In this document: one piece after another, positions 5,279 to 63,851 of the stretch
Numbering within the stretch: the first letter of the stretch is position 1
How the letters are laid out: each line of letters opens with the position of its first letter
NCBI GenBank assembly: GCA_964016885.1
Contig: OZ024741.1
Location: forward strand, 406,968,001 to 407,032,000
Origin: Eledone cirrhosa
Lineage: Eukaryota
Reading direction: 5' to 3'
DNA: 64,000 nt
Made by a program: the position numbers and the translations under genes
Notes under the pieces: model-generated
Seen by the model: only the letters and a program-made list of their open reading frames with translations
The model's database searches: none
Told to the model about the DNA's origin: nothing

Positions 5279-5390
5279 ATAATTGTTTCTACTTTAGGCA
5301 CAAGGCCAGCAATTACACACTGGTACTTTATTTTAGCGACCCCGTAAGGATGAAAGGCAAAGTCAACCTCGGCGGGATTTGAACTCAGAA
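5279..5390 (-). mobile_element. tRNA-derived SINE family A (Nin/Deu-like core), 3' part
   Basis: Reverse complement of core GCCTTTCATCCTTACGGGGTCG..AAATAAAGTACCAG and tail GTAGAAACAATT. Confidence 0.8.
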
Positions 5391-5735: not shown

Positions 5736-5962
5736 TGATATATATATATATATATTTCGTTTCTGAATGTGTTTAGCAAGATTCTTTATCTGAAAACGTG
5801 TGTTGAAACCGATATTGTTATACTTTGGGAGGGTCATGTTGCCAATAAGAAACACACGCACCAGATGTTTCACTCCAATTTATTATAAATTAAATTTATA
5901 AATTTAAGAATTTATAAATTTCCGTTTGGTTGGTTCCATAACCGGACGGTTGTTCATATATT

Positions 5963-6005
5963 GTCAAAGTTCTTTCGTCAAACATTCTGTGACCTCTTCA
6001 GTGAC
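5963..6005 (-). ncRNA. Type I hammerhead ribozyme (minimal stem III)
   Basis: Minus strand GTCA-CTGAAGA-gGTCACA..TTTGAC-GAAA-GAAC-TT-TGAC. Confidence 0.7.
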
Positions 6006-6138
6006 TGGGGATTCTTTTCTTTGTTTTTGTGCCTCTCCTTTGTTCTGTCCTACACCATCTGTCCTACGCCATCTGTCCAAACAAGATGGCGTAGGACAGA
6101 ACAAAGGAGAGGCACAAAAACAAAGAAAAGAATCCCCA

Positions 6139-6181
6139 GTCACTAAAGAGGTCACATAATGTGTGACGAAAGAACTTTGAC
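6139..6181 (+). ncRNA. Hammerhead ribozyme, core-mutated (CTAAAGA)
   Basis: Mirror of the 5963 motif with a G5-to-A change. Confidence 0.55.
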
Positions 6182-7751
6182 AATATATGAACAACCGTCC
6201 GGTTATGGAACCAACCAACCGGAAATTTATAAATTCTTAAATTTATAAATTTAATTTATAATAAATTGGAGTGAAAGCATCTGGTGCGTATGTATCTTAT
6301 TGGCAACATGACCCTCCCAAAGCATAACAATATATATATATATGAGAACAATCTGATAACAGGTCGTATCCCAGAAAAAATGGCAGCAGGTTTTGGATAG
6401 ATACTCATCTGTTTCCGGCTTATTTTCCCAGTCGTTAGATTATTTTCTGTAGTCAAATATACCGCCAGAGCTATTATTCCAATTCAATTTTCACATTCCA
6501 ATTCACACTCTCTTCTAATCATGTCCATTTTCGTCTCTGTCCATTTTTGTTATCGTCTAAAAGTGTAAATTATATACAGAGAGTTAGAAAGGAGAGAGAT
6601 AAACCAATATACATAATTTTGTGGGGGGTATGTACATAGTGGGAGCAGCATATTCTAGGGCAGACTTGCCCCTACAGAGAAGCAGTGTCTTTTGAGATTA
6701 TAACACCAAGAAAATAGAATCAACAACATAGTAAAAATATGTGACAAGAGACAGTAATACTAATAAGAGAGACATTAAAATGTTGTGTAACTTCTCTCAG
6801 AAAATTCCCATTTAATCGAAGCCTGTAAACTGATAAACATACATTAAAAACCTATTAGATTATGTCGTAAATTCCGCCAGAATGTAAACAATATATTAAT
6901 TCATGTGATAGACGTCGTTATCAACATTTACTTGTCTTAGAGGGTTTGAACGTTGAAATTTAAAGCAGACTTTAATCTAATGCCGACTACAATTTGGGCA
7001 ACACCTATTGAATTATTATACACAATAAAATAAAAGGTTGTTTATGATGGTAGATTGTGGATTTGTTATTATTTAGTATTATATAAGATAGCTACAATAG
7101 ACACGCGAATAGTTGATGACATATCACTATATGACTATTCTTTATGTCTAAGGACAGACAGCTTCTTTTATTATCTTTAAATTTGGTTGTTGTTGTATAA
7201 AGTTATTAGTTATAACTGATATACTTCATTGTCGTTTATCTCAGAAAGAAACTGTTTTCATAGCTCCTTGCAGCCGAGAGAAAAAGAGATATGGGAGCTT
7301 TATATTAACGTAAAAATCAAATGATTGTAATTGGCATTGAATATATGCAACACAAAGACATAAAACGATAAACAATATATAAAAAGTAAGAAAAAGAAGT
7401 TGAAGTTTGATTCCTAAAGATTATCAATACAACCACCCAGTCTACGACATGATAATTTCATATGAGAACATAAATTTATATATAAATTTTATTTGAATGG
7501 AAAACCCGTTTTGATTGCCAAAAGTTTTCTTTAATGTATTATATTTAATAGATTATAGATATGTTATGTACGATGAAGACATTCAAATTCTCTATTTCGT
7601 TTGTTCATCGATTCTTTGTAATATTGAGACGAGCTGAAACCCTTTATAACAATATACTGTAGTATTTAGAACATCAAACATTTCTAAATAGATACAAGGC
7701 CACAAAAGATGTCGGAGGAATATAATTGATCTCAATAAATGACCTGTATTT

Positions 7752-7969: not shown

Positions 7970-8235
7970 TTTCATCGATTCAGGAAGGATAAAAGGGATA
8001 GTTGACCACAACAAAATTTGAAGTCAACAAGTAGAGAGACAGCCCCATACCGAAGACATGTCATTTGCTCTATTGATACTGTCAATCTACCGCCCTCGGA
8101 TAAAACATATATTTCTTACATTACACAAAACTAGGGATTTGTTGGAAGGGGACATTGACTATATCAATGTCATTGCTCGACGAGTATTCATTTTTATCGA
8201 CGTTGGAAGAATGAAAAACATAGTTGACCATGAAA

Positions 8236-8368
8236 TAACTGTTTCTACTTTTGGCACAAGGCCTGCAATTAACCCAGTGCATTACTGGTACTTTATTTTA
8301 TCGACCTCGTAAGGATGAAAGGCAAAGTTAACATCGGCGGGATTTGAACTCAGACCATAAAGGGCCAT
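8236..8368 (-). mobile_element. SINE family A
   Basis: Same core and tail as 34947..35143. Confidence 0.8.
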
Positions 8369-8413: not shown

Positions 8414-8902
8414 CAGAGGTGCCCAAAATGGGCTCTACCACCGCCTGGGGCTTGAGAAGGTCCAGGGGGCGATGGGGGTGGTAGAGATGATACAATAGTA
8501 TATTAAATATCAAATGATATATACTATATATAAATATAATAAAATGAAAAATATTTCTTTATACATAGTATATATTATAGTATAAGTAGAGAGTCGGACG
8601 CCATGCTTTCCAGCATAGTTACGTCCCTTTACGGTCTGAGTTCAAATCCCGCCGAGGTTAACTTTGCCTTTCATCCTTACAGGGTCGATAAAATAAAGTA
8701 CCAGTAATGTACTGGGTAGTTGCCGGCCTTGTGCCAAATGTAGAAACAATTGTTTATTATATATAAATTAACGATTTTATTTATTATATATTTTTTACAA
8801 TTTACGTGTAATATAGTTGGGTGGGTGAGAGTGGGGGCACTGAAGTTATTACGTGGTCATGAGGGGTTTGTGGGTTGGGGGCTGGGGGTTGGGTGACCTC
8901 TG
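8414..8902. mobile_element. hAT-type MITE with a nested SINE
   Basis: TIRs CAGAGGTGCCCAA / TTGGGTGACCTCTG; perfect 8-bp TSD ATTTAATT at 8406..8413 and 8903..8910. Confidence 0.8.
8586..8753 (+). mobile_element. SINE family A nested in the hAT MITE
   Basis: B-box GAGTTCAAATCCC, core and tail. Confidence 0.85.
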
Positions 8903-9094
8903 ATTTAATTTATCATGTGCAGAAATTAAGGTTTGATAGTTTAATCTACCAGCCTAAAGATGGAATTTCTTTTAACACGTAAAATCCACACGAAACCGTC
9001 ACTGGTTCTAGGATACAAACCTGTTTATTTTAAAGTGTATTATATATCTAAAAGCCTGCCATCATAATTTTATATCAGAAATTGTCTTAGTTAA

Positions 9095-9279
9095 TAATTA
9101 TTTCTACATTTGGCACAAGGCCAGCACTTACACAGTACATTACTGGTACTTTATTTTATCGACCCCGTAAGGATGAAAGGAAAAGTTAACCTCGGGGGGA
9201 TTTGAACTCAGATCGTAAAGGGAAGTAACTATGGAAAGCATGTCAGACCCTCTACCGATGCTGCTAATTCACCGCCCTT
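9095..9279 (-). mobile_element. SINE family A
   Basis: Near full length on the minus strand. Confidence 0.85.
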
Positions 9280-9299
9280 GTCTTAATTAATAATGCTCT

Positions 9300-14635: not shown

Positions 14636-14830
14636 GGTAAAGGTTCAGGAGCCCGACGGCAGAGCTCAATCCGTTTCGACAGCTTTTTCTGGATTGAAAT
14701 AGCCGTCGAAACGGATTGAGCTCTGCCGTCGGGGTCCCGAACCTTTTCCTATTACCCACTCTACTACCCAAAGTATCGAGTACTCTGGTGCGTTATGGTC
14801 CACCTGGTTCCTTACCACACTTCCTTCATT
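14636..14830. mobile_element. Short asymmetric hairpin family H, copy 1
   Basis: CCCGACGGCAGAGCTC..GTTTCGAC / GTCGAAAC..GAGCTCTGCCGTCGGG plus unpaired tail; lies in (TA)n. Confidence 0.85.
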
Positions 14831-14841
14831 ATATATATATA

Positions 14842-15066
14842 TAAGAGATGTCAACATGAATGGATCTGTTATTTTTATCTAAAGACATTTTTTTCAATTC
14901 CAACCCGCCTGTCCCCTCAATCTATCTTATTTCTCATTCTTTCTTCTCATGAAAGACTAGCGTCCGAAACGTTAAGACACTCTTCCTGCTATACCAAGCG
15001 TTAATCTAATATATTCCTTCCATATACTGTACCGATTGTGTTGTTATTTCTGTTTACCTTTTACAT
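14842..15066 (+). mobile_element. ~225-bp HHR-bearing element, family K (HHR 14942..14977, core CTCATGA)
   Basis: Inverted paralogue at 27660..27880; TCTT-CTCATGA-aaGAC..GTCc-GAAA-CG-TT-AAGA. Confidence 0.75.
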
Positions 15067-15300: not shown

Positions 15301-15303
<3 letters not shown>

Positions 15304-17991
15304 TAAGAGACAAAGCAGACCAGAGGTCCAACAACTTGGGAGGTAACCTGTAGAAGGCTTGGTTAGCCTCAAGCAGCGCACAAGTGATGGTGAGGTAGTA
15401 TGTCGACCCACAGATAAGTCTGGTAGGATGTCAATAGACAGCATGCCGAACTACATCAACGCTATGCAACCCCACATCACCAACACGAGCGAAATTGCAC
15501 AGCAAATACATGTTTGGGAGAGAGAAGATCCTCAACGCTCACATGATGATGTGGACCGACATCCTAAAGCCAAGCAGACGCACTGCCAACAACTTCCAGG
15601 CGTCTAACAATGGCATACAACACTTGTATGGGCTCCGCAAAGACCATAAGACAGTCGACGACCCGACAACAGGACCACCAACAAGACCTGTATGCGGAGC
15701 AAATATAGATAGCAACTACAGGATCTCCTACTTCCTCTCAATGGTTATACGCCCCATAATCAAGATGTCCCCAGTTGTATGTGACAGTACAGAGGACCTC
15801 CTCAGCAGAATCAGTGAGTGCAACATAAAAACAAAATCCTATCCAACTGCATAATAGGCAGTATGGATGTGATATCACTGTACCCATCCATTAACATTGA
15901 TTTTGCTGTGGAAAAATGTGTGGATATGATCATTGAGATTGAGGTGGAGTTCTGCGACGTCGACACAGACGAACTGGGCCTCCTACTTAGACTTGCCTAT
16001 GACACTGACTACCTAGACAGCCATGACCTTAGACGTTTCTGCCCCAGTAGACCCATAAGAGGTAGACTTCCCACCATAACCTCAATGGCAAAAAGACTCC
16101 AATGGGAAGGTGGATTGGGTGGACCAAAGCTATAAGGACCCCCTAAAACAGTGATCAGGTACGAAAAATGGTCGCACATGCAATAGGGGCTAGTATCAAA
16201 ACTACCCTAAAGGGCCACATATTCAAATTCAAAGAGAAGATCTACACCGAAATAAGGGAGCAGCCATTGGCGTCAGCATAGCTGGTGACGTTGCCAACCT
16301 TTTTATGGTATGGTGGGAAAGGAGACTTAAAGATCCCCTTGATGAGAGCTCCATAAACCTCATCATGTACTTTCGTTACGTAGACGACATCAATGTAGTA
16401 ATAAGGACATCTCCACAAGAGAGTACTAACAAGTTTGATTTAGAATGTAGCACAATGGAAAGCATCCAGCAGATAGCTAATTCCATACACCAGAGTATAA
16501 CTGTAACTATCGACTACCCTTCCAAACACCCTAACAACAGATTATCTGTATTAGACAATAGTGTTAATCCAGACTATCTGGATTAACACTATAGACGAGA
16601 GAGCCCAAATTCTCCACTCACACTACGCTAAGCCCATGGCCTCCAAATACCTGATACTCAAAATCTCAGCAATGTCCAGTAGTGCTAAGTTTAATATTCT
16701 GATCGCAGACTTGGTACGAGTGATGAAGAACGTGTCCCGCATGTGCGACCCAACAGGATTGGAAAGACACATCCAACACTTCATCAACCGCATGCAGTTC
16801 TCTGACTACAACCAAAGAGACAGAATCAGAGTATATGAAGGAGCCACGGAGAAGTATAAGACCCTCATAGAACTGGACATGAAAGGAATTTGCCCATTAT
16901 ACAGGAGCAAATCATGGAATAGCTTAGATAGGACTAGACATAAGATAGGGAAAGCCACCTCATAGTACGACAACCAGAGATACCAGAGTGTCATGTTTGT
17001 GGACGCCAGCCCTGGAGGGAAATTAGCTAACCAGTGTAGAAAAGCCCTGAGAAAGACCCACTTAAAGATTAAGGTAGTAGAAAAGCCAGGAACCACCATA
17101 AAATCCCTGATCAGCAAAACCTACCCTTTTAAGAAAACCCACTGCACTAATAGGAAATGTATTATATGTAAAGTAAACCCCCGGATAAACTGTAAAACTA
17201 GAAACGTAGTCTATAGCATAAGATGTACAGAGGGTACTTGCAGAAACATGGCAACAACATACATAGGCGAGACAGCTCGTAGCATAGGTGAAAGGATAGA
17301 CCAACACTGGGGAAAGTAAAAGGAGGAAAAAACGGTTCAGTACTCTACGAACATGCCAGACAACAACACGAGGGTAACATAGACAACATAGAAATTAGAA
17401 TAATATCTAAACATAGAAATGATCCAGCAGATAGGCAAATCAGAGAGGCCAGCGAAGTAGAACATAAGAAGGCCAAGGCTAAACAGAAAAAATGAATGGA
17501 ATAACAACAACACCCAAACAAACAATACTGACCTAAGAGAAGTATAAATAAATAAATACATACACAAGCATAATAACAACAAACACATATAAACACACAC
17601 TAGTAAACTAAGATAGAATACAATAACCAATACACAGTCACCCAACCACGAACACACATCAAACACTATACACACACGCAAACGCATGCGCAGAGAAGAC
17701 AAAAAAAAAAAATGAACAGACTAAATAAAGATTGCATAGGCATACAATACAACAGGAGGAAACATAATAGCACCACTGACGAAAGAACTTTGATAGACTA
17801 TATATATGTGTTTGTGTCTATATTGTATCTGTATTTTTGACCGTTTTTAATCAATGGTAACATTGAGGACCGAATAAATTAAATTAACCGATATAAAAGA
17901 CACAGAAGCGAAAACCAACCAAACAGTGAGTGTGTTCTGTTATTAATTCTGGCAATATTACACAAATATGACCCTCCCCAAGTATAACAAT
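15301..17991 (+). mobile_element. Penelope-like retroelement, 5'-truncated and frameshifted (RT, Cys linker, GIY-YIG)
   Basis: DKSGR, LYGLRKDH, GSMDVISLYPSI, FRYVDD, CxxxxCxxC, NVVY..YIGETAR; closely similar to 47881..51449; (TA)n flanks. Confidence 0.92.
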
Positions 17992-18171
17992 ATATATATA
18001 TACACACAAATATAGACATACATATGAGGGAGTCCAACATACACCAATTATGCTCAATGGAGGAATTAATAAGAATCAATTCTTCAGAGCATAATACAGT
18101 TTGTATTTCGCAAATGTTAATAAGATAAGACATATTTACCTCTTTACTTATATATACATCCATATATAATG

Positions 18172-18325: not shown

Positions 18326-18697
18326 CATATAGTAAAAAAAAACGAACAATTGATTCTCATCAGTCAGCCTCTTGAAATCATAATAGCTTCAGTGCATTCA
18401 TCCCAGGGCACATTGCTTCGTGTCAAAATAGGTAGACAGGACGGGTGGTACATTTCGGAAGATTACACAAAGAAAAATTAGAGAACCGAAGTATTAGCTG
18501 ATAAAGTAGAGAGAGATAGTAAATAGATGAGAGAGAGACATAGAAACGGTCGCATTAGCTTAGAAAATGGAGAGAAAAAATAGAAAGAATAGAAAGAGAA
18601 AACATATGGACCACAGTCCAACGTGAAGAAACAGGAAAATTAGAGGAATTCATATGTGAAATCCTTAACTATCGAAGTTTTTTTTTAACTTAACAAA

Positions 18698-18832
18698 TAA
18701 TTGTTTCTACTTTAGGCACAAGGCCAGCAATTACCCAGTGCATTACTGGTACTTCATTTTATCGACCCCCGTAAGAATGAAAGGCAAAGTCAACTTCGGC
18801 GGGATTTGAACTCAGATCGTAAAGGGACGTAA
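18698..18832 (-). mobile_element. SINE family A
   Basis: Core and tail. Confidence 0.8.
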
Positions 18833-19464
18833 CCTAACAAATAATATATGTTACCCCTACCATTTTCTCTATTTCCCTTTTATATACTTTCTCAGTCTCC
18901 GTGATATAGGAAGATACATAACTATATGGAATTTAACTAGAATATGTCAGTGAGTTCAACATTTGAATCACATATATCTTCATTTAAGTAAAGTCATTTC
19001 TCTTTGGAAAAACATTTGTTGCCTCAAACATATAATTTGAAGCTGCAAACATATAAACACACAAAACATATTTCACTTATCTAATAAACAGATTTTATCA
19101 GCTTTAACTTAACAAAAAACTCACACATACACATAAATATCAATAATATAATATTCAAATTTTGTTATTCCTCGTAGATGTATTCAATCTGCCAGATCTA
19201 ATAATGAGAAAAATAGCCTATATTTTAAATATAGATGAGCATTTGGAGATAAATATATTGACATCGTTTGTAAACAAACGCATCTGGATCAAATAATACA
19301 TTGGTTCTTTTAGTTGTCATCTTTACTATAGATTGAAATGAAACCACATTTGTATCCTCGGGAGGTTGTTAATAACGATAGTTTTGATGCTGTGTATCAG
19401 ATTAGATTAGATGATATCACTACTGATCCTTATCATTGTCAGCAACTACGGAATATGTGATATG

Positions 19465-20908: not shown

Positions 20909-21097
20909 GGAAAAAGTATGACCCCGACGGCAGAGCTCAACCCGTTTCGACGGCTATTTGAGTCCAGAAATAGCCGTCGAAACGGCTTGAGCTCTGCCGT
21001 CGGGGTTATACTTTTTCCTATTTCCCACTCTACTACCCTAAGCATTGAGTACTCTGGTGCGTTATGGTCCATCTGGTTCCTTACCACAATTCATTTG

Positions 21098-21098
<1 letters not shown>
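20908..21098. mobile_element. Hairpin family H, copy 2
   Basis: Same hairpin and tail; lies in (TA)n. Confidence 0.85.
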
Positions 21099-21142
<44 letters not shown>

Positions 21143-21691: not shown

Positions 21692-21694
<3 letters not shown>

Positions 21695-21876
21695 AAAATG
21701 TATGACCCTCGACGGCAGAGCTCAAGAGGTTTCAACGGCTATGTCCAGAAATAGCCGTCAAAACGGCTTGAGCTCTGCCGTCGGGGTCATACATTTTCCT
21801 ATTAACCACTCTACTACCATAAGTATTGAATACTTTGGTGCGTTATGGTCCATCTAGTTCCTTAATACAACTACTT

Positions 21877-21880
<4 letters not shown>
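21692..21880. mobile_element. Hairpin family H, copy 3
   Basis: Same hairpin and tail; lies in (TA)n. Confidence 0.85.
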
Positions 21881-26107: not shown

Positions 26108-26236
26108 ATAACTGTCGAAACGGCCGGAACTCAGCCGTCGGGGTCCTGACTGTTTTCCTATTACCCACTCTACTACCCTAAGTATCGAATACTCTGGTGC
26201 GTTATAGTCCACCTGGTTCCTTACCACACTTTCTTT

Positions 26237-27666: not shown

Positions 27667-27877
27667 TAAGGTAAACGGAAATAACCACCCAATCGGTGCA
27701 GTATATGGAAGGAATATATTAGGTTAACGCTTGATATAGCAGGAAGAGGGTCTTAACGTTTCGGACGGTAGTCTTTCACCAGAAGAAAGAATGAGAAATA
27801 AGATAGATTGAGAGGAGGGGCGGGATGGAATTGGAAAAAATGTCTTTAGATAAAAATAACAATTCATGTTGACATCT

Positions 27878-29780: not shown

Positions 29781-30144
29781 TGTGGATTGGCAGTATCGGT
29801 AGAGGGTCGGACACCATGTTTTGCAGCATAGAGTTACAGACCATTATAGTCTGAGTTCAAATCCCACCAAAGTTAATTTGCCTTTCATCCATACGGGGTC
29901 GATAAAATAAAGTACCAGTAATACACTGAGTTAATTGCTGGCCTTGTGCCAAAAGTAGAAACAATTAGTGAAATAATTGGCTAGGGCGGTGGATTGGCAG
30001 TATCGGTAGAGGATCGGCTTTGGCGCATAGAGTTACGGCCCTTTCCATTCTGAGTTCAAATCCCGCCGAGATTAACTTAATAAAATAAGGTACCAGTAAT
30101 GCACTGGCAATTGTTGGCCTCGTACCAAAAGTAGAAACAATTAT
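29781..30144 (+). mobile_element. Two tandem SINE family A copies
   Basis: 29781..29966 and 29984..30144. Confidence 0.85.
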
Positions 30145-33600: not shown

Positions 33601-34501
33601 GGCTTAAAATTAAGAAGGAAGCAAGAACGGGTGGGGGGTGTTTCCTCATCAGTTGTCTACTGAGGGTCTCGGATATTTCAACGCTTTAAAGACAATATAT
33701 CTACCCACAAAGTGTTCAATAACTGGGTAAGTTATTGGGAAAACAACGAGGGACGGAAGGAAAATAGAAGGGAAAAGGGAAAAAAGGGAAGAAAAGAGAA
33801 AAACAGCGAAAAGAACAACAAATCGGAGAATGTGTGAGCAACTTCAGGTAAAAAAATCCAAGTCCACATCGGTGGCTGAACATAAGTTCTAGAGTGTGTG
33901 GACGAATGAAAAAGCCCGTCTGATGCCAGCGAGTGTAAGTGAGAAAGGGACTACTAGGGGGTCAGGCGAGGGAAACAATGAGGTGACTGGAAGAGTGAGA
34001 GGGAGAAAGGGAGAGGAAGAAAGAGAGGGAAGAGTAGGGCAACGAAATAGGTAGGTAGAAGGAGAGAGAAAACGGGTTACAGCGAAACATGATAAAATAA
34101 AAGGAGAATAGGATTGGTTGTGTAGTTGCTAGTTAAGTTAGGCTTGAAATTAAGAAGAAAGCAAGAACACATTGACAATGTGGTTATAGATAGACAACCG
34201 ATAGAATGGTTATGGCTAGAACGCTTTTAATTGTGGATCTAATTTAAAGTCTCACCTGTATTTAACCCTTCTATTTTCCTTCCCTCCCTCCTCCGTTTTC
34301 CCAATAACTTACCCAGTTATTGAACACTCTGGCGGTAGATACATTGTCTTTAAAGCGTTGAAATATCCGAGACCCCCAGTAGACAACTGATGAGGACCCC
34401 CCCCCCCCGCGCTCTTGCTTCTTTGTGCGTCTGTGTATAATTACATGAAACTTACATCTGATTTTAGTTGCTTCCATTCTATGCTAATTAACAGAAATAT
34501 A
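33460..34501. mobile_element. Fold-back element with ~235-bp inverted arms and a purine-rich spacer
   Basis: 33460..33771 versus 34266..34501, left arm interrupted by (CA)n(TA)n; 29-bp direct repeat at 33600 and 34140. Confidence 0.8.
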
Positions 34502-34946: not shown

Positions 34947-35143
34947 GGCGGTGGATTGGCAGTATCGGTAGAGGGTCGGACGCCATGCTTTGACGCATAG
35001 AGTTACGGCCCTTGCTATTCTGTGTTCAAATCCCGCCGAGGTTAACTTTGCCTTTCATCCTTACAGGGTCGATGAAATAAAGTACCAGTAATACACTGGT
35101 GTAATACATTTGGTGGCCTTGTGCCACAAGTAGAAACAATTAT
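34947..35143 (+). mobile_element. SINE family A, full length
   Basis: GGCGGTGGATTGGCAGTATCGG (A box), GTTCAAATCCC (B box), Nin/Deu-like core, GTAGAAACAATTATT tail. Confidence 0.88.
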
Positions 35144-35812
35144 TTATATTAAAATTTGAATTTCCACCTCGGAATTCGTATATTTACGACGCAATTTACA
35201 TTAGAATAAAAGTAATCATACTTTTCTGAAGTTCTGTTATTTCTTCACATGTCTCTCTTTCCCCACTTCTCTTATAATTATGTTTTTGTTTCCTTGTAAA
35301 CTATTATAGAAATAAACACGAAAGTCTTGAAAAAGTGATGAATTACAAAATATTATTTGATTTGAAATATACAATAAAGAGAAAATAAATCAATGATTCC
35401 TAAACGATGAACGAGAACCATATATATGAACAAATATAAAGAAAAAACGAAAAATGAAGTCTCGTCTTAAATAATTGATTTTTTAAGCAATACATTTTAT
35501 AATATTTAAGAGGAATATTTACATCCATCATAGACAACACCAGTTTTGTTATATTTTAAAATTATTGCTGCTTTCGAATATTTGATCAGTTCCTCTCCTT
35601 AGTGTATATGAAACAACGCAGTAACTTTTCCAGGATATAGTGGGGAAAAAATGACTGTCAAACTAGATTATTTCAAATTTGAAATGGCGGCCATCATTCT
35701 TTAACCGAACCATATCCTTTTAACCAATGGAAATTGAATGGCAACTGACATTTGAAAGCATGCTTTAACTTTGTTCAAAGGGTTTTCTTTTACTTTGCAC
35801 AGATTATCGATT

Positions 35813-40203: not shown

Positions 40204-41227
40204 TTGGTTGCATCAATATTGATCTCGATTCCAAAACAAAGATTGACAAATCTTATGTGACCACGTGATAATGACAAACTGGAAGAATCATTAGAAAGTT
40301 GGATAGAATGCTTTGTGGTATTAGTTCCGGCGCTCTACTCTATGAGTTCGAATCCCCCCACGGTCAAATTTGCTTTTCATCCATGCAAGATTTCACAGCC
40401 CTAGCATCACTCCTTCATAGGCTGACCAAGATGCTCTTAAGGAATGAAGAAATGGGGTTTATTTTTCAACATAGTCCCTGGAAAGAAACAATGCAGTTAT
40501 TAGTAAGAAGATTTGAAATAAATGCATTTAAGATTTCACAGCCTTAGCATCATTCCTATGAACTTTTCAGCCGACCTCGTCTATTACTATATTCTATTGA
40601 CCCTCAGTTGACCTCCGTAAGATTTGAACTTGGAGTTATGACAGCCAGAACAAACACATGCAAGATTTCACAGCTCTAGCATCAATTCTTCACCGGTACG
40701 TTGCAATAAAAGATAGGGAAAATCTAGCTAGAAAACTTTTCATCATAGGTTTTATCGAACAGAGTTGCTTTGGTCTAAACAAAAACAACAAAAGCAACAG
40801 CAAGGGTGACAGGCAAGTACCTTCACAATAACAATAACAAAATTAGAGTAACTACCATTGGCAAACGTCCACAAATGTGTAAGGAAAGTCTGTAGTCAAT
40901 TGAATCGGTTATTTTATCCTGGCAAAAATCAGAGCACAGAAGGTTTCAATATCAAAGGATAAGATTTAGATTGGTATCATTTCTGACAGAACAATCTTCC
41001 TGCTATAGAGACAACTTTGTATGACGCAGTCAGGTCCATAACCCCCGCTCTCTATATATATACGTATATATCTATACATATACATCCATATATATATGTG
41101 TAAATTTAAGTTTGAGAAATAAACGTAAGAAGAATGAATATAGTATCTACATTTGCACATAAATAGTCCACTGTAAACACACACACAGGCAGACATACAC
41201 GCAGGCATATATATAGGTATATATATA

Positions 41228-41513
<286 letters not shown>

Positions 41514-47843: not shown

Positions 47844-47881
<38 letters not shown>

Positions 47882-49155
47882 CGGCGATGAATTAGTTTTG
47901 CGAGGTTTTTTATATGAAATCAGTGAACAAGAACAACAAATCCTGCAGCTACCACCAACATTTGCCATCTACAAAAAGATTAACCCTATGGAGTGCAAAA
48001 TGGAGCTGGAAAAGTGTTTCACAAAAATACGTTGGAATGCAAAAGTAAACAACAACAACAACTATACGGACAACAACAACAACAATAATAACGGTAGTAG
48101 TAATATAAACAATAACTCTGAGTATAGAAATAACAGCCATAACAATAATAATAGCAGGAGAGTGAGAAATAGTAATGATGGTAATAATACTAACGATAGA
48201 CAGAACAACAACAACAACCACAATAATAATAATAATAGAAACATTAACCACAGACACAGCAGCAGCGACCACAGTAGTAGTAACGGTAACAATACGAACA
48301 ACAACAATAATAACCACAGTGGTAATAATGGAAATAATACATGTAGCAACATCAATGATAGACACAACAAAAACAAGAAACATAATAAAAGTAACAACCA
48401 CAATGGTAGAAATAACAGTAACAACAACAATAACGGTGAAGTAAACAAGAATACATCGAGCAATCATAACAATAATAATAATGCTAATGATAGGAACAAA
48501 AACATCCACCATGAGAACAATAATAGCAACACACATAGAGAAACTATTTTTCAACCCAGCTGACAAAACATATAAGATGGGTAATATCTATCCTACGAGA
48601 TTACCCTTTAATAAAAGAGTTTGCATACCACAACAAATAGATGACGAGACAGAGGCACAGTTCACCATAGCTAGAAATAAGATTAGACAAATAGTAGACC
48701 GGTATACTAAGAGACAGAGCAGACCAGAGGCCCAACAACTTGGGAGGAAACCTGTAGAAGGCTTGGTTAGCCTCAAGCAGCGCACAAGGGATGGGGAGGT
48801 AGTATGTCTACCCACGGATAAGTCTGGTAGGATGTCAATAGATAGCATGCCGAACTACATCAAGGCTATGAAACCCCACATCACCAACACGAGCGAAATT
48901 TCACAAAAAATTGCACAACAAACACATGATGGGAGAGAGAAAATCCTCAACGCTCACATGTAAGATGTGGACTGACATCCTAAAGCCAAGCAGACGCACT
49001 GCAAACAACTTCCAGGCGTCTAACAATGCTATACCACCCTGTATGGGCTCCACAAAGACCACAAGACAGTCGACGACCCGACAACAGGACCACCAACAAG
49101 ACCCGTATGCGGAGCTAATATAGCTAGCAACTACAGGATCTCCTACTTCCTCTCA

Positions 49156-50920
49156 ATGGTTATACGCCCCATAATCAAGATGTCCCCAGATGTATGTGAC
49201 AGTACAGAGGACCTCCTCAGCAGAATCAGTGAGTGCAACAAAAACAGGAACCTATCCAACTGCATAATAGGCAGCATGGATGTGGTGTCACTGTACCCAT
49301 CCATTAACATTGATTTTGCTGTGAAAAAATGTGTGGAGATGATCATTGAGAGTGAGGTGGAGTTCTGCGACGTCGACACAGACGAACTGGGCCTCCTACT
49401 TAGACTTACCTACGACACTGGCTACCTAGACAGCCATGACCTTAGACGTTTCTGCCCTAGTAGGCCCATAAGAGGTAGACCCCCTACCATAACCTCAATG
49501 GCAAAAAAGACTCCCATGGGAAGGTTGATTGGGTGGACCAAAGCTATACGGACCTCCCAAAACAGTGATCAGGTAAGAAAAATGGTCGCACATACAATAG
49601 GGGCTCGTATCAAAACTACCCTAAAGGGCCACATATTTAAGTTCAACGAGAAGATCTACAACCAAAATGAGGGAGCAGCCATTGGCGTCAGCATAGCTGG
49701 TGATGTTGCCAACCTTTTCGTGGTATGGTGGGAAAGGAGACTTAAAGATCTCCTTAATGAGAGCTTCATAGACCTCATCATGGACTCTCGTTCTGTAGAC
49801 GATATCAATATAGATATAAGAACATCCCCACTAGAGAGCACTAACAAGTTTGATTTAGAACGTAGCACAATGGAAAGCATCCAGCAGATAGCTAATTCCA
49901 TACACCAGAGTATAACTGTTACTATCGACTTCCCTGCCAAACACCCCAACAATAGACTACCCGTAATAGACACGGAACTCTGGATTAACACTATAGACGA
50001 GAGAGCCCAAATTCTCCACTCACACTATGCTAAACCCATCGCCTCCAAATACCTGATACTCGAAAACTCATCAATGTCCAGTAGTGCTAAGTTTAATATT
50101 CTGATCGCAGATTTGGTACGAGTGATGAAGAATGTGTCCCGCATGTGCGACCCAACAGGATTGGAAAGACACATCCAACACTTCATCAACCGCATGCAGT
50201 TCTCTGGATACAACCAAAGAGACAGAGTCAGAGTATACGAAGCAGCCATGGAGAAGTATAAGACCCTCATAGAACTGGACATGAAAGGAATGTGCCCATT
50301 ATACAGGAACAAATCATGGAATAGCTTAGATAGGGCTAGACATAAGATAGGGAAAGCCACCTCATGGTACGACAAACAGAGATACCAGAGTGTCATGTTT
50401 GTGGACGCTACCCCTGGAGGGAAATTAGCTAACCTTAAAAATTAAGGTGGTAGAAAAGCCAGGAACCACCATAAAATCCCTGATCAGCAAAACCTACTCT
50501 TTTAAGAAAACCCACTGTACTAATAGGAAATGTATCATATGTAAGGTAAACCCCCGGATAAACTGTAAAACTAGAAACGTAGTCTATAGCATAAGATGTA
50601 CAGAGGGTACTTGCAGAAACATGACAACAACATACATAGGTGAGACAGCTCGTGGCATAGGTGAAAGGATAGATCAACACTGGGGGGAACTAAAAGGACG
50701 AAAAAACGGGTCAGTACTATACGAACATGCCAGACAACAACACGACGGTAACATAGACAACATAGAAATTAGAATAATATCTAAACATAGAAATGACCCA
50801 GCAGATAGGCAAATCAGAGAGGCCAGTGAAATAGAACTTAGAAGGCCAAGACTAGACAGAAAGAATGAATGGAAGAGCAACAACACCCAAACAAGCAACA
50901 CTGATCTAAGAGAAGTATAA
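49156..50920 (+). pseudogene. PLE reverse transcriptase-GIY-YIG endonuclease, frameshifted near 50433
   Basis: A deletion relative to 17032..17061 separates RT from EN; catalytic Y changed to S. Confidence 0.88.
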
Positions 50921-51200
50921 ATAAGTAAATAAATAGATAAATAAATAAATACATACATACACAAGCACAATAACAACAAACACATATAAACACACACTAG
51001 TAAACTAAGATAGAATACAATAACCAATACACAGTCACCCAATCACGAACACACATCAAACAAAACACTATACACACACGCAAACGCATGCGCAAAGAAG
51101 ACAAAATAAAATAAACAAACAAGCAAATAAATAAATAAATATATAGACAGACTAAATAAAAATGGCGTAGACATACAATGCAACGGGAGGAAACAATAGC

Positions 51201-51242
51201 ACCACTGACGATGTTGCAGATGTGCAACGAAAGATTTCTGAT
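51201..51242 (+). ncRNA. Hammerhead ribozyme motif in the PLE 3' region
   Basis: ACCA-CTGACGA-tGTTGCA gatg TGCAAC-GAAA-GATT-TC-TGAT; weak stem I. Confidence 0.65.
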
Positions 51243-51443
51243 AAACTAAATATATGTGTTTGTGTCTATATTGTATCTGTATTATTTTTGACCGTCGGTC
51301 AGTCAATGGCAACATTGAGGACCGAATAAATTAGATTACCGATATAAAAGATACAGAAGCGAAAAGCGAAAACCAACCAAACAGTGAGTGTGTTCTGTTA
51401 TTAATTCTGGCAATATTACACAAATATGACCCTCCCCAAGTAT

Positions 51444-51492
<49 letters not shown>

Positions 51493-52115: not shown

Positions 52116-52394
52116 ATATATATATATATATATATGTAAGTATGCATGTACACGTACATACATATATGTATACAGACGTACATTTACGTAAGTGCCATAC
52201 TAAGAGTGAGAAATGAAATTTCGTTTTCATTTTGTTTCAATTTATATATATATATATATATATGCAAAAGTTTTATTTAAGATTGTTGGGTTACAACGAG
52301 TAAATATTTTATAACTGATATAAAAGCACTCAACAGTTTCTGGAGTAGGTTTACGATATTAAACAATTGGAAACTATATTTATAAAACCATATT

Positions 52395-52460
52395 TATTTC
52401 GTTATATATATTTCTGGGATATCATATTAAAAATATGGTATGCCTTCCTCAGACAAAATA
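52395..52460 (-). ncRNA. Type I hammerhead ribozyme (sense to the Naiad ORF)
   Basis: TATTTTGT-CTGAGGA-[CATATT/AATATG stem II]-GAAA-TATATA-TA-ACGAAATA. Confidence 0.82.
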
Positions 52461-53617
52461 CAATACATAAGCTGTTTTATAAATAATTAGTGACATACCT
52501 TGTAATAATGCAACTTCCATTTAAAAAGTTGATTTGGTAGTGAAACTGTTATGACAGTTATATAGAAAGAAAAACGAAGATGAGAAGAAGAAGATGAAGA
52601 GATGTATGTAAATAAAAACAACGGAGCGAGATAGAGAGACAAGGAGAGAGAGAAATACATTGAGGAGGTGAAAATATAGTAGGCTGCTTTTGGACAGATG
52701 ATCATCGTATATGTGAGAGGTTAAGGGAAGGGATACAGTTAAACTAGTGTATAGGAGAAAAAGAAAGAAAGATGATATATTTTAAATATATTAAAAATAT
52801 ATTATGTCTCATCCATTTGAATTATCAATTTTTATCAATTAGGTATTATAATGTAAATATCAGTATTCATGAATGAGACACATATCCATAATGTGTGAAA
52901 AAATGACCACATGCTCAGTTTAAAAATTCTTAGGTCTATAAGCAAAAACTGAGATAAAACTTCAAACATAAGTATATATGCATTCTCGTGAAAAAAAGAG
53001 AAAAGAGAAGGTTATCTCAAATTCAAGTTGATAAATATAGACGCACATGTGAACCTATTCTTATATTTCATGAACAACTTCAATGCGTTAGAAAAGATTC
53101 CACCCTATATACATTTACATACATATATACATATATATAGACACAAAATATATAAGATATACATTAACATCTAAAATAACATTCCAGCCTCACTTGCATG
53201 ATCATCGATCAAGCATAGAGTAGACAACAGATATCAATATTAAAATTAAAAACGCCAAGAATATCTTCGTCACTCCACAGAGTATCTAGGGACGCAAGAG
53301 AACATAGTATGCCACGCATATCGGTCATAGAATCAGAGTCAAAAGCAAACAAAACCAAAATTGTTCACCAAGCCTTATTTAGCAGAAATCATTCAAAACT
53401 TATTCTACAAATGCTCTTATATTTATTATAGAAGTTTATCCAGCTTAAAAAATTTATTCAAAAGATTGGGAACAACGCCAATTTTAGGGTAGTTTATTTA
53501 ATCTCATTAATTATATATTCATGCAGAAAGGTTTTAAAAAAATTGAAGGAATCGAAAGATTTATCGCCAAGTATCATAAATAGTCAAATACCTTAAGTAA
53601 ATATACTACATTTTATA

Positions 53618-55417
53618 CTATATTTTAAATTTATATTTATATTTAAATGTTGAGTTCAATCTATGTCTGCAACAGCTGAATAAATTGGTTCGTAAATTAA
53701 GGGAATTTTTAGATTTTAATATAAAGAATATCTCCTCCGCGCAGAGGTCACATGTCACAGAAGAAGAATTAAAAGGAATCCCTTTTGAGACTATATTCCA
53801 AACCATCGAATATCCAACTTTACCATGCTTAAGTTGCCAGAGTAACCCTGACAGCGATGTTGAGGATTTTTTATTTGGATCCGTGAAAGAATTTTTGTGA
53901 TTATTATAGCGAAGTTTAAATTCTGTCGAGGTGGAACCAACATAATTAAAAGAATTTAAATCAGTTCTAACATTACAGTTGTATATTATATTTTTAACTA
54001 AGCAATTGTTATTTAGCGGACATTTAGATCTATCTCTACAGTTACAGTTTTTTAGTTGAATATTGTTTAGGCTATTTTCGGTATTTTGGCTAGGTTTTAG
54101 ATTCCTATTATTTATTCTATTAATATTTTGTGCTAAATTTTTGGTGGACGAGTACGTTAATTTTATAGTATGTCTATTAAAAATTGAGTGATACTTATGT
54201 GTTCTAGGGAAGCGTTTGTCAAGAGCATTAAAAAATAGTTTAGCGATGTGGGTTTTAATGTTTAGTGAGAAGGGGGGGGGGGGGGGGGCAAACCGTATTA
54301 TATTTCTAGTTCTATTTCTTTTCTGGTTTTTGAAATTATTGTAGTGCTTTCTATTATAGTTGTTAAAGTTGTTACTGTAATTAAAATTGTTGTTATTTTG
54401 GTTAGTTTGTCTATTATCGATGTACATAATTTTATCACTATATCCTGCTCTAGCTAAAGCTTCATTATAATTCTGGGCTTTTTCGTCAAAAATATTTTTA
54501 TTGGAAGAGATTCTAGAGATACGTTTTTGAACAGAGTTCACTATAGTATTTTTGACAGATCTGGGGTGATTGGAGCTAAAATTGACATAATTCAAGTTTT
54601 CATTTAACTTGTGAAATGGATAGTGAAGACATGTGTTGAGATTAAATGTTACGTCTAGGAAATTGACTATTCTATGGTTATTCTCAATTTCTATTTTTAG
54701 ATTAAGGTAATTAAAAAATTGTATAATTTGTTTTCTTTTCTTATTTAGTTCAGAGTTATTATTTTCAATAAGTAAAAGCATGTCATCTCTATATAAACCT
54801 CCGGTAACACCGGGTATTTTCCTATGCAGCGAATTAATTATAAATAGGCCCACAAGGTCCGTTACCTGAGCTGAGTCTGATGATCCCATAGTAATGTCAA
54901 AATTATTATCTCTATCTGCCCTAGTCCATAGTTGGTTATTAAATTCTATCAAAGTTTTCCTTGCCGATAATATAATGTGCATTTCATTGCTAGTTAGGTC
55001 TGTATGCTTGAATGCGTAATTTAGTGCCTTATTAAGTAGATTAGGGGTAATGGATGAATAGTAGTTAGCAATATCTAGTTGAATAAATTTATTATTATTG
55101 TTATATTTAATTTCATTAAACAACTCAATGACCACCCCAGTTCCCTTCCACAAGGTCAAGCCAGGTAAACAATTCAAGTCCTTAATTTGCTGTATCACTC
55201 TGTCTAGAATGTTCTTGCTAAGTTTACCCAGGTCAGATTTTGATGGTGCAATCAACCTGACTGGCAAGTCATTTTCAAAATTTCTCTTGTGATCTTTCAT
55301 ATTGATCTTGGGTTTCCTAGGCACGAAAGGTTGTGTTTTGTTCTCAATTTCCAACTCATGCATTATACATGATGCCTCTGCTTTTGACTCTGATTCTATG
55401 ACCGATATGCGTGGCAT
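53618..55417 (-). CDS. Naiad-type PLE RT plus GIY-YIG endonuclease (599 aa, uninterrupted; first 13 codons come from the inverted repeat)
   Basis: KDHK.NF...RLI.PSKSDLG, QLDIANYYSSI, FDITMGS.D.A, LYRDD, NFLDVTF, CNCR....CPL...CL, IIY/YVG, R...H, CDLC..E, CRH. Confidence 0.9.
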   Translation of the reverse strand: MPRISVIESESKAEASCIMHELEIENKTQPFVPRKPKINMKDHKRNFENDLPVRLIAPSKSDLGKLSKNILDRVIQQIKDLNCLPGLTLWKGTGVVIELFNEIKYNNNNKFIQLDIANYYSSITPNLLNKALNYAFKHTDLTSNEMHIILSARKTLIEFNNQLWTRADRDNNFDITMGSSDSAQVTDLVGLFIINSLHRKIPGVTGGLYRDDMLLLIENNNSELNKKRKQIIQFFNYLNLKIEIENNHRIVNFLDVTFNLNTCLHYPFHKLNENLNYVNFSSNHPRSVKNTIVNSVQKRISRISSNKNIFDEKAQNYNEALARAGYSDKIMYIDNRQTNQNNNNFNYSNNFNNYNRKHYNNFKNQKRNRTRNIIRFAPPPPPFSLNIKTHIAKLFFNALDKRFPRTHKYHSIFNRHTIKLTYSSTKNLAQNINRINNRNLKPSQNTENSLNNIQLKNCNCRDRSKCPLNNNCLVKNIIYNCNVRTDLNSFNYVGSTSTEFKLRYNNHKNSFTDPNKKSSTSLSGLLWQLKHGKVGYSMVWNIVSKGIPFNSSSVTCDLCAEEIFFILKSKNSLNLRTNLFSCCRHRLNSTFKYKYKFKI

Positions 55418-56330
55418 ACTATGTTCTCTTGCGTCCCTAGATACTCTGTGGAGTGACGAAGATATTCTTGGCGTTTTTAATTTTAATATTGATATCTGTT
55501 GTCTACTCTATGCTTGATCGATGATCATGCAAGTGAGGCTGGAATGTTATTTTAGATGTTAATGTATATCTTATATATTTTGTGTCTATATATATGTATA
55601 TATGTATGTAAATGTATGTAGGGTGGAATCTTTTCTAACGCATTGAAGTTTTTCATGAAATATAAGAATCGTTGCAGCGTATCACGTAGGTTCACATGTG
55701 CGTCTATAATTATCAACTTGAATTTGAGATAACCTTCTCTTTTCTCTTTTTTTCACGATAATGCATATATACTTTGATAATGCATATATATGTTTGAAGT
55801 TTTATCTCAGTTTTTGCTTATAGACATAAGAATTTTTAAACTGAGCATGTGGTCATTTTTTCACACATTATGGATATGTGTCTCATTCATGAATACTGAT
55901 ATTTACATTATAATACCTAATTCATAAAAATTGATAATTCAAATGGATGAGACATAATATATTTTTAATATATTTAAAATATATCATCTTTCTTTCTTTT
56001 TCTCCTATACACTAGTTTAACTGTATCCCTTCCCTTAACCTCTCACATATACGATGATCATCTGTCCAAAAGCAGCCTACTATATTTTTCACCTCCTCAA
56101 TGTATTTCTCTCTCTCCTTGTCTCTCTATCTCGCTCCGTTGTTTTTCTTTACATACATCTCTTCATCTTCTTCTTTTTTTATTTACATACATCTCTTCAT
56201 CTTCTTCTCATCTTCGTTTTTCTTTCTATATAACTGTCATAACAGTTTCACTACCAAATCAACTTTTTAAATGGAAGTTGCATTATTACAAGGTATGTCA
56301 CTAATTATTTATAAAACAGCTTATGTATTG

Positions 56331-56396
56331 TATTTTGTCTGAGGAAGGCATACCATATTTTTAATATGATATCCCAGAAATATATATAACGAAATA
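56331..56396 (+). ncRNA. Type I hammerhead ribozyme (inverted pLTR copy)
   Basis: Mirror of 52395..52460. Confidence 0.82.
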
Positions 56397-56455
56397 AATA
56401 TGGTTTTATAAATATAGTTTCCATTTGTTTAATATCGTATATATATATATATATA

Positions 56456-56541
56456 GCGAGGGAAAAGTGGTAAGGAACCAGATTCCGTACAGAATTAGCC
56501 GTCGAAACGGCTTGAGCTCAGCCGTCGGGGTCTTACTTACT

Positions 56542-59800: not shown

Positions 59801-59990
59801 AACGAAGGAAATGTGGTAAGGAACCAGATGGGCCATAACGCACCAAAGTACTCAATACTTAGGGTAGTAGAGTGGGTAATAGGAACGAGTAGGACCCCGA
59901 CGGGTGAGCTGAAGCCGTTTCGACGGCTAATTCTGGACTCAAGAATTAGCCGTCGAAACGGCATGAGCTCAGCCGTCGGCGTCCTACACG
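59801..59990. mobile_element. Hairpin family H, copy 7 (opposite orientation)
   Basis: Tail on the left, then hairpin. Confidence 0.85.
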
Positions 59991-60752
<762 letters not shown>

Positions 60753-60786
60753 ATATATAAATTAACATATATATATATATATATAA

Positions 60787-61376
60787 AATTTTAGTAAGTA
60801 AGTTGATTTTTAATTCTTTTAAATTTTCTTATTTTACGTCTTTCATATAATTATTCTGCATCCCCCTGCATAGAACCACAAAGGTACTAAGACATAACAT
60901 ATATATTTGCTAGCATGGGTGTACATCTGTACACATATGTTGGTAGATGTACTAATTCTCTATATTTATCTCCAAATTATTTGTTGAGCAAAACTTGCCA
61001 AAATTTACTGCTGATTCATGGTAGTAGTAGGCTCTTGTCATAATACCACCCCACTGCTAACTGATTAACCTCAGTGTCACGTGATTGATTCTTTAGAATC
61101 TGCCACTGACCAGAGGCAGTGAATTTTTTCAGTACTCTTGAATTTAGTCCCCGCTAGCTTTATTCCATCCACTGAATTATTATTTTTATATGGGTTCCTA
61201 GTATCTGCGCATCGCCTGGGAACTTAGCTGAGAATAAACTCCCAGATGACGTAAGGAATTCTCTATAGTTATATTACGTAACTATATTTATCCCCTTACA
61301 GAAACTAATTAGTTGGAGTGAACATTTTAGTAAGTTGATTTTTAATCTTTTTAAATTTTCTTATTTTACGTCTTTC

Positions 61377-61380
<4 letters not shown>
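60787..61380 (+). mobile_element. 532-nt monomer with terminal redundancy (family M, copy 2, inverted and diverged)
   Basis: 60787..60849 repeated at 61324..61380; diverged reverse complement of copy 1. Confidence 0.72.
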
Positions 61381-61410
<30 letters not shown>

Positions 61411-61565
61411 TGTTATACTTTGGGAGGGTCATGTTGCCAATAAGAAACACACGCACCAGTAACTTTCACTTCAATTTAATTTATTAAATATTTATAAATT
61501 TACAAATTTATAAATTTCTGGTTGGTTGGTTGGTTCCACAACCAGATAGTTGTTTATATATATAT

Positions 61566-61610
61566 AGTCATAGTTCTTTCGTCACACACTCTGTGACCTC
61601 TTCAGTGACT
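61566..61610 (-). ncRNA. Type I hammerhead ribozyme
   Basis: AGTCA-CTGAAGA-gGTCACA gagtg TGTGAC-GAAA-GAAC-TA-TGACT. Confidence 0.82.
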
Positions 61611-61715
61611 GGGGATTTCTTTCTTCGTTTCTGTGCCTTCCCTTTCTTCTATCCTACGCCATTTTTCTAGAAAAAAGAAGAAAGGGAAGGCACAGAAACG
61701 AAGAAAGAAATCCCC

Positions 61716-61760
61716 AGTCACTGAAGAGGTCACAGAGTGTGTGACGAAAGAACTATGACT
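61716..61760 (+). ncRNA. Type I hammerhead ribozyme
   Basis: Same motif on the plus strand. Confidence 0.82.
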
Positions 61761-62005
61761 ATATATATATAAACAACTATCTGGTTGTGGAACCAACCAA
61801 CCAACCAGAAATTTATAAATTTGTAAATTTATAAATATTTAATAAATTAAATTGAAGTGAAAGCAACTGGTGCGTGTGTTTCTTATTGGCAACATGACCC
61901 TCCCAAAGTATAACAATATCGGTTTCAACACACGATTTCAGATAAAGAATCTTGCTAAACAAATTCAGAAACGAAATATATTTATATATATATACATATA
62001 CATAT

Positions 62006-62083
<78 letters not shown>

Positions 62084-62094
62084 ATATATATATA

Positions 62095-62182
<88 letters not shown>

Positions 62183-62316: not shown

Positions 62317-62567
62317 ACGGCCCTTTGCGTTCTGAGTTCAAATCCGCCGAGGTTAACTTTGCCTTTCATCCTTACGAGATCGATAAAATAAAGTACCAGT
62401 GTTGCACTGGGGTAATCGCTGGCCTTGTGCCAACAGTAGAAACTCTATTTTTAGTTCAAATCCCGCCGAGGTTAACTTTGCCTTTCATCCTTACGGGGCC
62501 GATAAAATAAAGTACCAGTAAGGCACTGGGTTATTGCTGGCCTTGTACCAAAAGTAGAAACAATTAT
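62317..62567 (+). mobile_element. Two tandem 5'-truncated SINE family A copies
   Basis: B box, core and tail occur twice. Confidence 0.85.
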
Positions 62568-63744
62568 ATTTGAATACATTTCTGTTTACAACTATGTTTG
62601 TATGTGTTTCTATCTATCTCTTATTCTCTCTGTAGTCTGAGTATATATGTTTACACTTGTTTGTGTGTGAAGGAGGTGAGTAGAATTTTATATTTGGCAC
62701 ATGATATTCTTAAAGATCAGCTGACACAAGGTGACGTTAAGATGATCTTTTCCCTAACAAACAGCTTACTCAGTCATTTAAATTTCGATTATTCTCGTTC
62801 ATTGACTTTTTTCTAATTTATTACATCCTATTTTCATATATGCACAGATTTAAATTTAGTTCTCTTCAAATAAAATGAATGCCGACACATGTACAAAGTT
62901 CATATTGACCTATTGTCTTAAAACACAAGGCAAGAAGAAAAAAGGAATCTGTTTCAGTTACAGAACATGTGGCGCCATCTTGTTAATGCAATTATAATTG
63001 TGAAAGGGGAATAACCTTGTTAAATTTATAGATTTAAAAAAGATGTAGGCCGATTAATGTTTTTATTGTTATTCTCTTATAATTTATTGAAAAGTGATTT
63101 TGAAGAACTTCTTTTAGAATAAGAAATAGTGCACCAAGAATGTTAGATTTATTCAGTATAGATCAGGTCGGATATAAATTCCATATATGAGAGCCAACAT
63201 TACTGAGACATGTCTAAGGCGTTAGAAATCATTTGGCAGAGGGCTAAATTGTGTGATATATATGAAATATACATTAATATAATTGTAATGATATTTGAAA
63301 CCAGAAAACAATTGTGTGAATTGCAGTATTTATATAGTGATAATAGAATTCTAGAATTGTAGACTGGATTTGGACAAGGAAAACAAGATTTGTTTGTCTT
63401 AGCTATTCAAATAAAAACAAAATGCTATATTGGGCTTTGGTAAACGTATGTTACTTTATTCTATAAATAATAACGGACACATCGTGAGCGTTAACATATT
63501 CTTCCTAGATAAAACATTTCATTTTTGTCAAATCTCGTTCAGTTGGCTGGCTGTAGCGATGTAGAATTGTGCTTTCGATAGACAAACTCTTAACGAATTT
63601 GGCGTATCATGACAAGATAGGTTATGAACATAGTGTGGAAGGAAAAGTCTAATAATAGAAGGAGCTGACTCGAGCAAACGAAGTAACTAAACCGATCAAA
63701 TCAAACTATCAGGAATAAATTATAATAGAGATTTAGATCGATAA

Positions 63745-63851
63745 ATAATTGCTTATACTTTTGGCACAAGGCCAGCAATTATCCCAGTGCATTACCGATG
63801 CTTTATTTTATCGACCCTGTAAAGATGAAAAGCAAAATTAACTTCGGCGGA
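63745..63851 (-). mobile_element. SINE family A, 3' part
   Basis: Core and tail. Confidence 0.75.

Follow-up and report, generated by a model that had tools for sequence, protein, structure and literature searches.

Two hammerheads in one DNA hairpin of Eledone cirrhosa: very probably head-to-head PLE pLTR copies in a (TA)n target

Why should a stretch of about 570 bases fold back on itself almost perfectly and carry the same hammerhead on both of its strands? The stretch lies near the 61 kb mark of an AT-rich (36% G+C), microsatellite-rich window of animal-type sequence, the window being the whole 64,000 nucleotides analysed here. An inverted-repeat search finds two fold-back arms of 244 nt each, 61407-61650 and 61676-61919, which are 99% complementary and 25 nt apart; aligned to one another they match at 242 of 244 positions, with two mismatches and no gaps. 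Folded at full length as RNA, the hairpin reaches -427.5 kcal/mol (z -58 against 100 shuffles). A pattern scan places identical hammerhead cores at 61721 on the plus strand and 61605 on the minus strand, and with this the near-perfect arms of about 240 bp and the hammerhead per strand reported in a preliminary description hold. The answer proposed here is that the hairpin is very probably two head-to-head copies of the pLTR (end-repeat) of a Penelope-like element (PLE), a retrotransposon, lying in (TA)n, likely left by one retrotransposition event, and that hammerheads occur on both strands because each copy carries one.

The unit is asymmetric. Runs of (TA)n, read directly from the sequence and given no strand, border it on the left (61378..61408) and on the right (61976..62160). 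The left arm, a tail-less pLTR copy with its sense on the minus strand (61407..61668; repeat search, alignment), stops at the left (TA)n, and the right arm, a pLTR copy with its sense on the plus strand (61676..61919; same methods), continues into a one-sided tail of about 58 nt (61920..61977, plus), its edges blurred by AT microhomology, before the right (TA)n begins. The head-to-head junction between them (61651..61675, unstranded; sequence, contig comparison) contains a perfect 14-nt palindrome at 61662-61675. The left arm extends 5' beyond an ATGGCG motif as far as a CTAG centre; 11 nt present in this arm and in one contig of the public run X6 are absent from the right arm. Near the left-arm 5' end lies a YY1-like motif (61657..61665, minus), a candidate transcription-start signal.

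A second hairpin of the family, H6 (5752..6333, unstranded; pattern, alignment), has (TA)n on both sides and its tail on the left arm. Its two arms are 97% alike, differing by 7 mismatches and 2 gaps, whereas arms of different copies (61 kb against H6) differ by 24-29 mismatches and 4-6 gaps. The junctions also differ, that of H6 having two extra rounds of a 14-nt segment on the left arm. That arms are closer within a copy than between copies, and that the junctions are not the same, argues from sequence comparison that the palindrome is formed anew at each insertion and not passed on whole; arms could also stay alike through gene conversion between them. Within the H6 junction (6040-6097, left arm), GGACAG occurs three times at 14-nt spacing, which looks like two rounds of realignment and renewed copying of the 5'-terminal segment.

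What, then, is the tail? The conserved arm terminus opens with an ATG at 61894, and the frame stays open through the tail for 28 codons (61894..61977, plus; translation, comparison) in the 61 kb copy and in H6 alike. The two tails are identical at 58 of 60 positions, although the arms are only about 87% alike. An inverted fragment of the tail (47880..47925, minus; alignment, translation) sits at the 5' end of a coding PLE copy elsewhere in the window (local z 8.9, 1000 shuffles). Compared with this homolog over 47881-47919, residues are kept in 9 of 13 codons (4 identical, 5 synonymous, 4 changed), and 8 of 11 base changes fall at third codon positions (binomial p 0.009). The third-position bias suggests that the tail probably represents the beginning of the parent PLE ORF, with the 28 codons as its likely N-terminus. 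Relative P0013 (44% identity in the RT region) begins with a stretch resembling the tail peptide; among the N-termini of full-length relatives it is the best match, a weak one (p 0.014-0.017, one of 35 and one of 42 proteins) that is non-significant after correction, and a comparison with the relatives over their whole length gives no clear match.

The coding copy that bears the inverted tail is a 5'-truncated, broken PLE of a sister family (47920..51451, plus), encoding an RT followed by a C-terminal GIY-YIG-type endonuclease. It has a pLTR with a hammerhead core at 51205, and its 3' end has no tail. Since the inverted tail homolog adjoins it, this copy has the same plan as the hairpins: over 47880-51451 an inverted tail-bearing fragment is followed by a long truncated copy that ends at the near site. 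A second broken copy (15302..17993, plus) is 88% identical to the first. In this 18 kb copy, stem II of the hammerhead (17775-17790) has been deleted between two short ACGA repeats, leaving the core halves fused. The preliminary description had proposed that the arm shares its terminus with both coding PLEs, and the arm end does match 27 of 29 bases at 17965-17993 and 51423-51451 (E 7e-7). It had also pointed to a common stem III motif, GAAAGAACT, at about 17781; the match is present, but the PLE copy there lacks the entire stem II. The hammerhead at 51205 has a full core and a helix III that differs from that of the hairpin.

The proposed link of the hairpins to the PLE group proves stronger than was stated, because homology extends over the whole arm, which aligns to the end-repeats of the coding PLEs with global z of 8.2 and 6.5, and is joined by the tail homolog (z 8.9). 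Without its last 32 nt the arm still aligns, with z of 5.1 and of 3.4; at least 1 of 300 shuffles scored higher than the second of these. By sequence, the coding copies of the window are a diverged sister family and not the parent of the hairpins; no coding parent with the exact hairpin pLTR was found within the 64-kb window. The coding translation contains DKSG, YVDD, a C-x4-C-x2-C linker and C-x4-C between the two GIY-YIG core motifs, that is, a DKG-type RT, a C-terminal GIY-YIG, a CX2-5CxxC linker and two GIY-YIG cysteines as described for the Neptune type, a label that here follows from motifs and not from an RT tree and whose linker is shared by Nematis. Pfam gave no relevant match to the window PLE proteins; the relative P0025 matches Pfam GIY-YIG above the cut-off. 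The N-terminal region of the coding PLE (48040-48530) is an in-frame, Asn-rich, low-complexity stretch of about 160 codons.

An inverted 5'-truncated copy, a one-sided tail and a (TA)n target together are the published insertion pattern of PLEs, as given by Craig et al. 2021 (PMC8557442). There, insertions of EN+ PLEs are described as truncated at the 5' end, where an inverted and likewise truncated copy often adjoins them; a tail of 30-40 bp occurs at one end only, targets tend to be (TA)n without discernible duplication, and the pLTR holds a hammerhead. The mechanism of inversion is stated as unresolved. The hairpin shows pLTR homology (to the sister family), an inverted 5'-truncated copy at the 5' end, a tail at one end that falls within the ORF start, and (TA)n as its target. 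It differs in that the tail is about 58 nt and that both copies are reduced to the pLTR, which is why the 61 kb unit is a near-perfect hairpin. The same asymmetry recurs among 12 hand-picked inverted units in the window: nine adjoin (TA)n on one side with 42-143 extra bases on the other, two are symmetric and one is of uncertain asymmetry. One of the asymmetric units is an unrelated coding PLE at 52264-56440, and the set also holds four or five members of a short family, likewise unrelated (14.6, 20.9, 21.7, 41.2 and 59.8 kb). The 61 kb hairpin is a young non-coding PLE insertion, of a new family with a known architecture.

How might such a palindrome arise? The closest biochemical model is PAc, a green anole Poseidon element (Frangieh et al. 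2024, PMC11167929). Its protein cuts both target strands and extends them, with reverse transcription beginning internally, at two ORF-start sites that bound the tail. Against the analogy, the work concerns a Poseidon element, no strand difference in RT start site was seen in it, and the formation of inversions lies outside its results. The hairpin resembles PAc in ending within the ORF start at two tail-bounding sites, in its AT-rich target and in a hammerhead upstream of the ends. It belongs to a different clade, its ORF begins about 140 nt downstream of the hammerhead and not inside it as in PAc, and its start sites are deduced from DNA ends. By analogy with the lizard protein in vitro, the RT-endonuclease would nick AT-rich DNA on both strands, and reverse transcription would start inside the RNA at two sites, here about +25 and about +84 from the ATG. 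The near-site cDNA (~+25) would give the tail-less arm and the far-site cDNA (~+84) the tailed arm. Both cDNAs would extend as far as the RNA 5' end or close to it, which puts their ends a few bases upstream of the YY1-like motif; microhomology would join them there into a palindrome whose centre varies. The same product could come from a single cDNA folding back.

Where would the RNA begin? In both window copies and in three contig joints, the end of the longer arm lies a few bases upstream of the ATGGCG motif, a clustering of 5' ends that is biased because the reference itself stops there. In H6 the motif agrees exactly with the YY1 site that PMC5381506 gives for the start of mammalian L1. 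A near match lies in the coding PLE at 51159, at the pLTR edge, and one unrelated match at 62973. Together these suggest a putative transcription start at the YY1-like motif. Of the seven substitutions that separate the H6 arms, two correspond to alleles common in the family (7% and 12% of X1 depth) and both lie on one arm, a pattern with a chance of 0.02-0.15 as computed from 40 of 52 table rows; neither mismatch of the 61 kb copy is found among the listed family alleles. The H6 alleles give a weak hint in favour of two RNA templates. One may go further and read each hairpin as a frozen intermediate of integration, in which a PLE protein dimer copied two separate RNAs from the two target strands, one per RT start site, to the YY1-set 5' end, with the RT realigning and recopying 14 nt in a telomerase-like manner; I offer this tentatively and think it rather unlikely.

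If that dimer and two-template reading were true, thousands of short hairpins could settle the formation of PLE inversions from genome data alone. The worth of the 61 kb hairpin as a mechanistic record is modest. Taken by itself it is an ordinary dead PLE insertion of described shape and, lacking an RT, likely inert. It does extend the rule that two internal start sites bound the tail within the ORF start from the lizard Poseidon to the Neptune-type group, and it suggests a PLE transcript start and could separate two-template priming from fold-back of a single cDNA. A search of openly accessible papers brought up no work on the hairpin family or on PLE twin priming; supplements may already include the family or its junction types.

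Public sequencing contigs bear on whether these features are family-wide. Twenty of the 24 listed runs contain part of the stretch; none is recorded as RNA, so they have no bearing on expression. Family contigs aligned number 11,680 in X1 (placed on 366 bases of the stretch, X1 possibly being the source sample), 587 in X4, 24 in X5 and 6 in X6. In X1, 161 contigs exit into (TA)n behind 61919 and others continue into the tail; therefore tailed and tail-less ends both occur across the family. Among 15 of 34 X1 joints listed, three are fold-back joints (61664->61877, 61665->61875, 61666->61725), linking the antisense 5' end to sense positions that represent other truncation points. Among 30 of 12,440 contig pieces listed, none spans the whole stretch or the exact 61 kb junction, which is therefore without independent confirmation. 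Many contig 'skip' joints that enclose unknown letters were disregarded as probable divergence between subfamilies, and tail-to-arm depth ratios, which differ between X1 and X4 and are not readable as copy numbers, were left out. A>G differences among contigs were considered as RNA editing and rejected, the differences lying between DNA copies. X5 and X6, which carry other organism labels, contribute few low-depth contigs, some of which match the 61 kb copy at 98-100% identity across 99-143 bases and may derive from a close relative, trace DNA or transfer.

The hammerheads themselves are minimal type-I motifs by pattern scan, at 61716..61760 on the plus strand and 61566..61610 (core at 61605) on the minus strand. 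They have a stem II of 6 bp, a stem I of 5 bp, a helix III of 2 bp with an AA loop, and a CUA cleavage triplet. On the plus strand stem I is 61716-20/61756-60, the core 61721-27, an extra G 61728, stem II 61729-34/61740-45 and GAAA 61746-49, with the predicted cut after 61755. They were recognised by pattern together with the description of minimal hammerheads of metazoan PLEs by Cervera and De la Pena 2014 (PMC4209133), with which they share the core, stems I (short) and II, the extra base between 9 and 10.1, G10.1-C11.1, the 2-bp helix III and an NUH site; they differ from it in that loop 3 is AA, non-palindromic, and in that the partner is inverted and not tandem. Rfam returned no hammerhead at gathering score anywhere in the window, nor any among 52 weak matches to 61380-62000 at up to E=10; these weak matches were microRNA models that fit any long hairpin, all below cut-off, and were discarded. 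The cores called identical and intact on both strands are thus complete and identical, with 'intact' applying only to a complete predicted core.

Could these ribozymes act? The G15.2-C16.2 pair of helix III is present, and the AA loop would place two A-A mismatches in a dimer (duplex +0.4 kcal/mol), so that the dimer helix III is weak because loop 3 is non-palindromic; the partner copy would provide no dimer in cis because it is inverted, not tandem. In the predicted fold of a single arm, stem II has a probability of 0.96-1.0 and stem I only about 0.08; in the full-length read-through hairpin of either strand both are 0.0. The 61 kb ribozyme likely needs a tandem partner or protein, and would be buried in any read-through RNA. 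In PAc, the hammerhead cleaves only with protein, and its cleavage is dispensable for insertion (PMC11167929).

The preliminary description called the arrangement ambisense, a misleading label that is not supported: the motifs belong to two copies of the same sense sequence that face outward as a result of inversion, not to two polarities of a replicon. With head-to-head copies, transcription reading through from either side would produce the antisense arm first. The further proposal that such RNA would be a long dsRNA burying its own ribozyme agrees with the modelled folds, the RNA itself and any action of ADAR or Dicer on it being hypothetical; sequestration is predicted if read-through occurs, and an internal promoter would give two identical outward RNAs and no duplex. 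If transcribed, thousands of near-perfect palindromes of 200-250 bp could be a large source of dsRNA. Since the hairpin follows an insertion pattern already described for PLEs, the presence of a ribozyme on each strand probably came about as a side effect rather than marking a new two-stranded replicon, and nothing points to ribozymes adapted to the two polarities.

The reading that comes nearest to the one preferred here shares its insertion chemistry and differs only in the source of the template, which would be a short, non-autonomous, retrozyme-like RNA of pLTR plus tail, made from tandem master arrays and moved in trans by PLE protein. This is a real possibility, if one I consider somewhat short of probable. 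The family is very large and diverse (the 11,680 X1 contigs above), the window holds no coding parent, and the arms end near the same 5' site; in bioRxiv 10.64898/2026.07.22.740005, animal non-LTR retrozymes are reported as non-autonomous PLE derivatives, non-coding, pLTR-related, with a type-I hammerhead and a high copy number, all of which fits. Yet retrozymes are defined by tandem, head-to-tail repeats with a hammerhead per unit, whereas both window copies are inverted, head-to-head pairs with a tail; the tail frame is open in both; and among the 15 of 34 joints listed the only go-back joints are of about 35 nt, at the arm end. A host might instead keep the hairpin as a source of dsRNA, and hence of small RNAs or edited RNA, by which the PLE family is silenced. 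A read-through RNA would indeed form a duplex of about 240 bp, but high arm identity is explained by the youth of the insertion, there is no sign of transcription or selection, and H6 shows ordinary decay, which makes such a role improbable.

That the whole hairpin is a mobile unit of its own, MITE-like or viroid-like, with a ribozyme per strand processing both polarities of an ambisense RNA, would account for two copies of the same overall plan and for the complete cores on both strands at 61 kb. Such a replicon would be a fixed unit with a foldable ribozyme in each polarity; here junctions vary, arms group by copy and not by side, the ribozyme stems have zero probability in either full-length strand, and the H6 cores are decayed (G5 lost in one, stem II weakened in the other). 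The tail is on one arm only, and a coding PLE and other families show the same plan. This reading is already largely refuted, and I regard it as very unlikely indeed. Equally hard to credit is an assembly or library artefact, a fold-back chimera of a single arm, which would suit the 99% identity of the arms and the want of a listed contig spanning the stretch; it fits poorly with the two arm mismatches, the asymmetric centre, a tail starting exactly at the known end point of the family, the second copy, whose arms show 9 differences, and further fold-back joints among public contigs.

The window holds further elements of related form. The PLE at 52264-56440, of another type and on the minus strand, contains a 629-aa open frame (53618-55507); its inverted copy spans 1,059 bp (93%), a tail of about 88 nt is present on one side only, and each of its repeats lacks pieces that the other has. 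Its CxC-x4-C linker resembles that described for Hydra. A fold-back family of about 190 bp lies in (TA)n at 14636-14830, 20909-21100, 21692-21880, 41226-41400 and 59801-59993, with partial copies at 26108-26235 and 56440-56540; it has arms of about 50-55 bp, a variable centre and a one-sided extension of 42-82 nt, shows no hammerhead by pattern scans, and is likely another PLE-type end. Two older inverted pairs, 33615-34424 (90%) and 60117-61373 (~75%), contain hammerhead-like CTGATGAG or CTGACGA cores, with no one-sided tail seen. A dispersed 214-bp repeat (91%; 14846-15059 and 27669-27877) has a decayed hammerhead-like stretch and lies between (TA)n or (CA)n runs. The window opens with a tandem array (1-1802) of units of about 45-47 nt with a higher-order period of about 184, partly copied at 2754-2904. 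Finally, an abundant SINE-like dispersed repeat, 80-94% identical between copies, occurs at 5275-5390, 8233-8364, 8579-8757, 9093-9296, 18695-18833, 29782-29967, 34947-35147, 62317-62567 and 63741-63850, among others.
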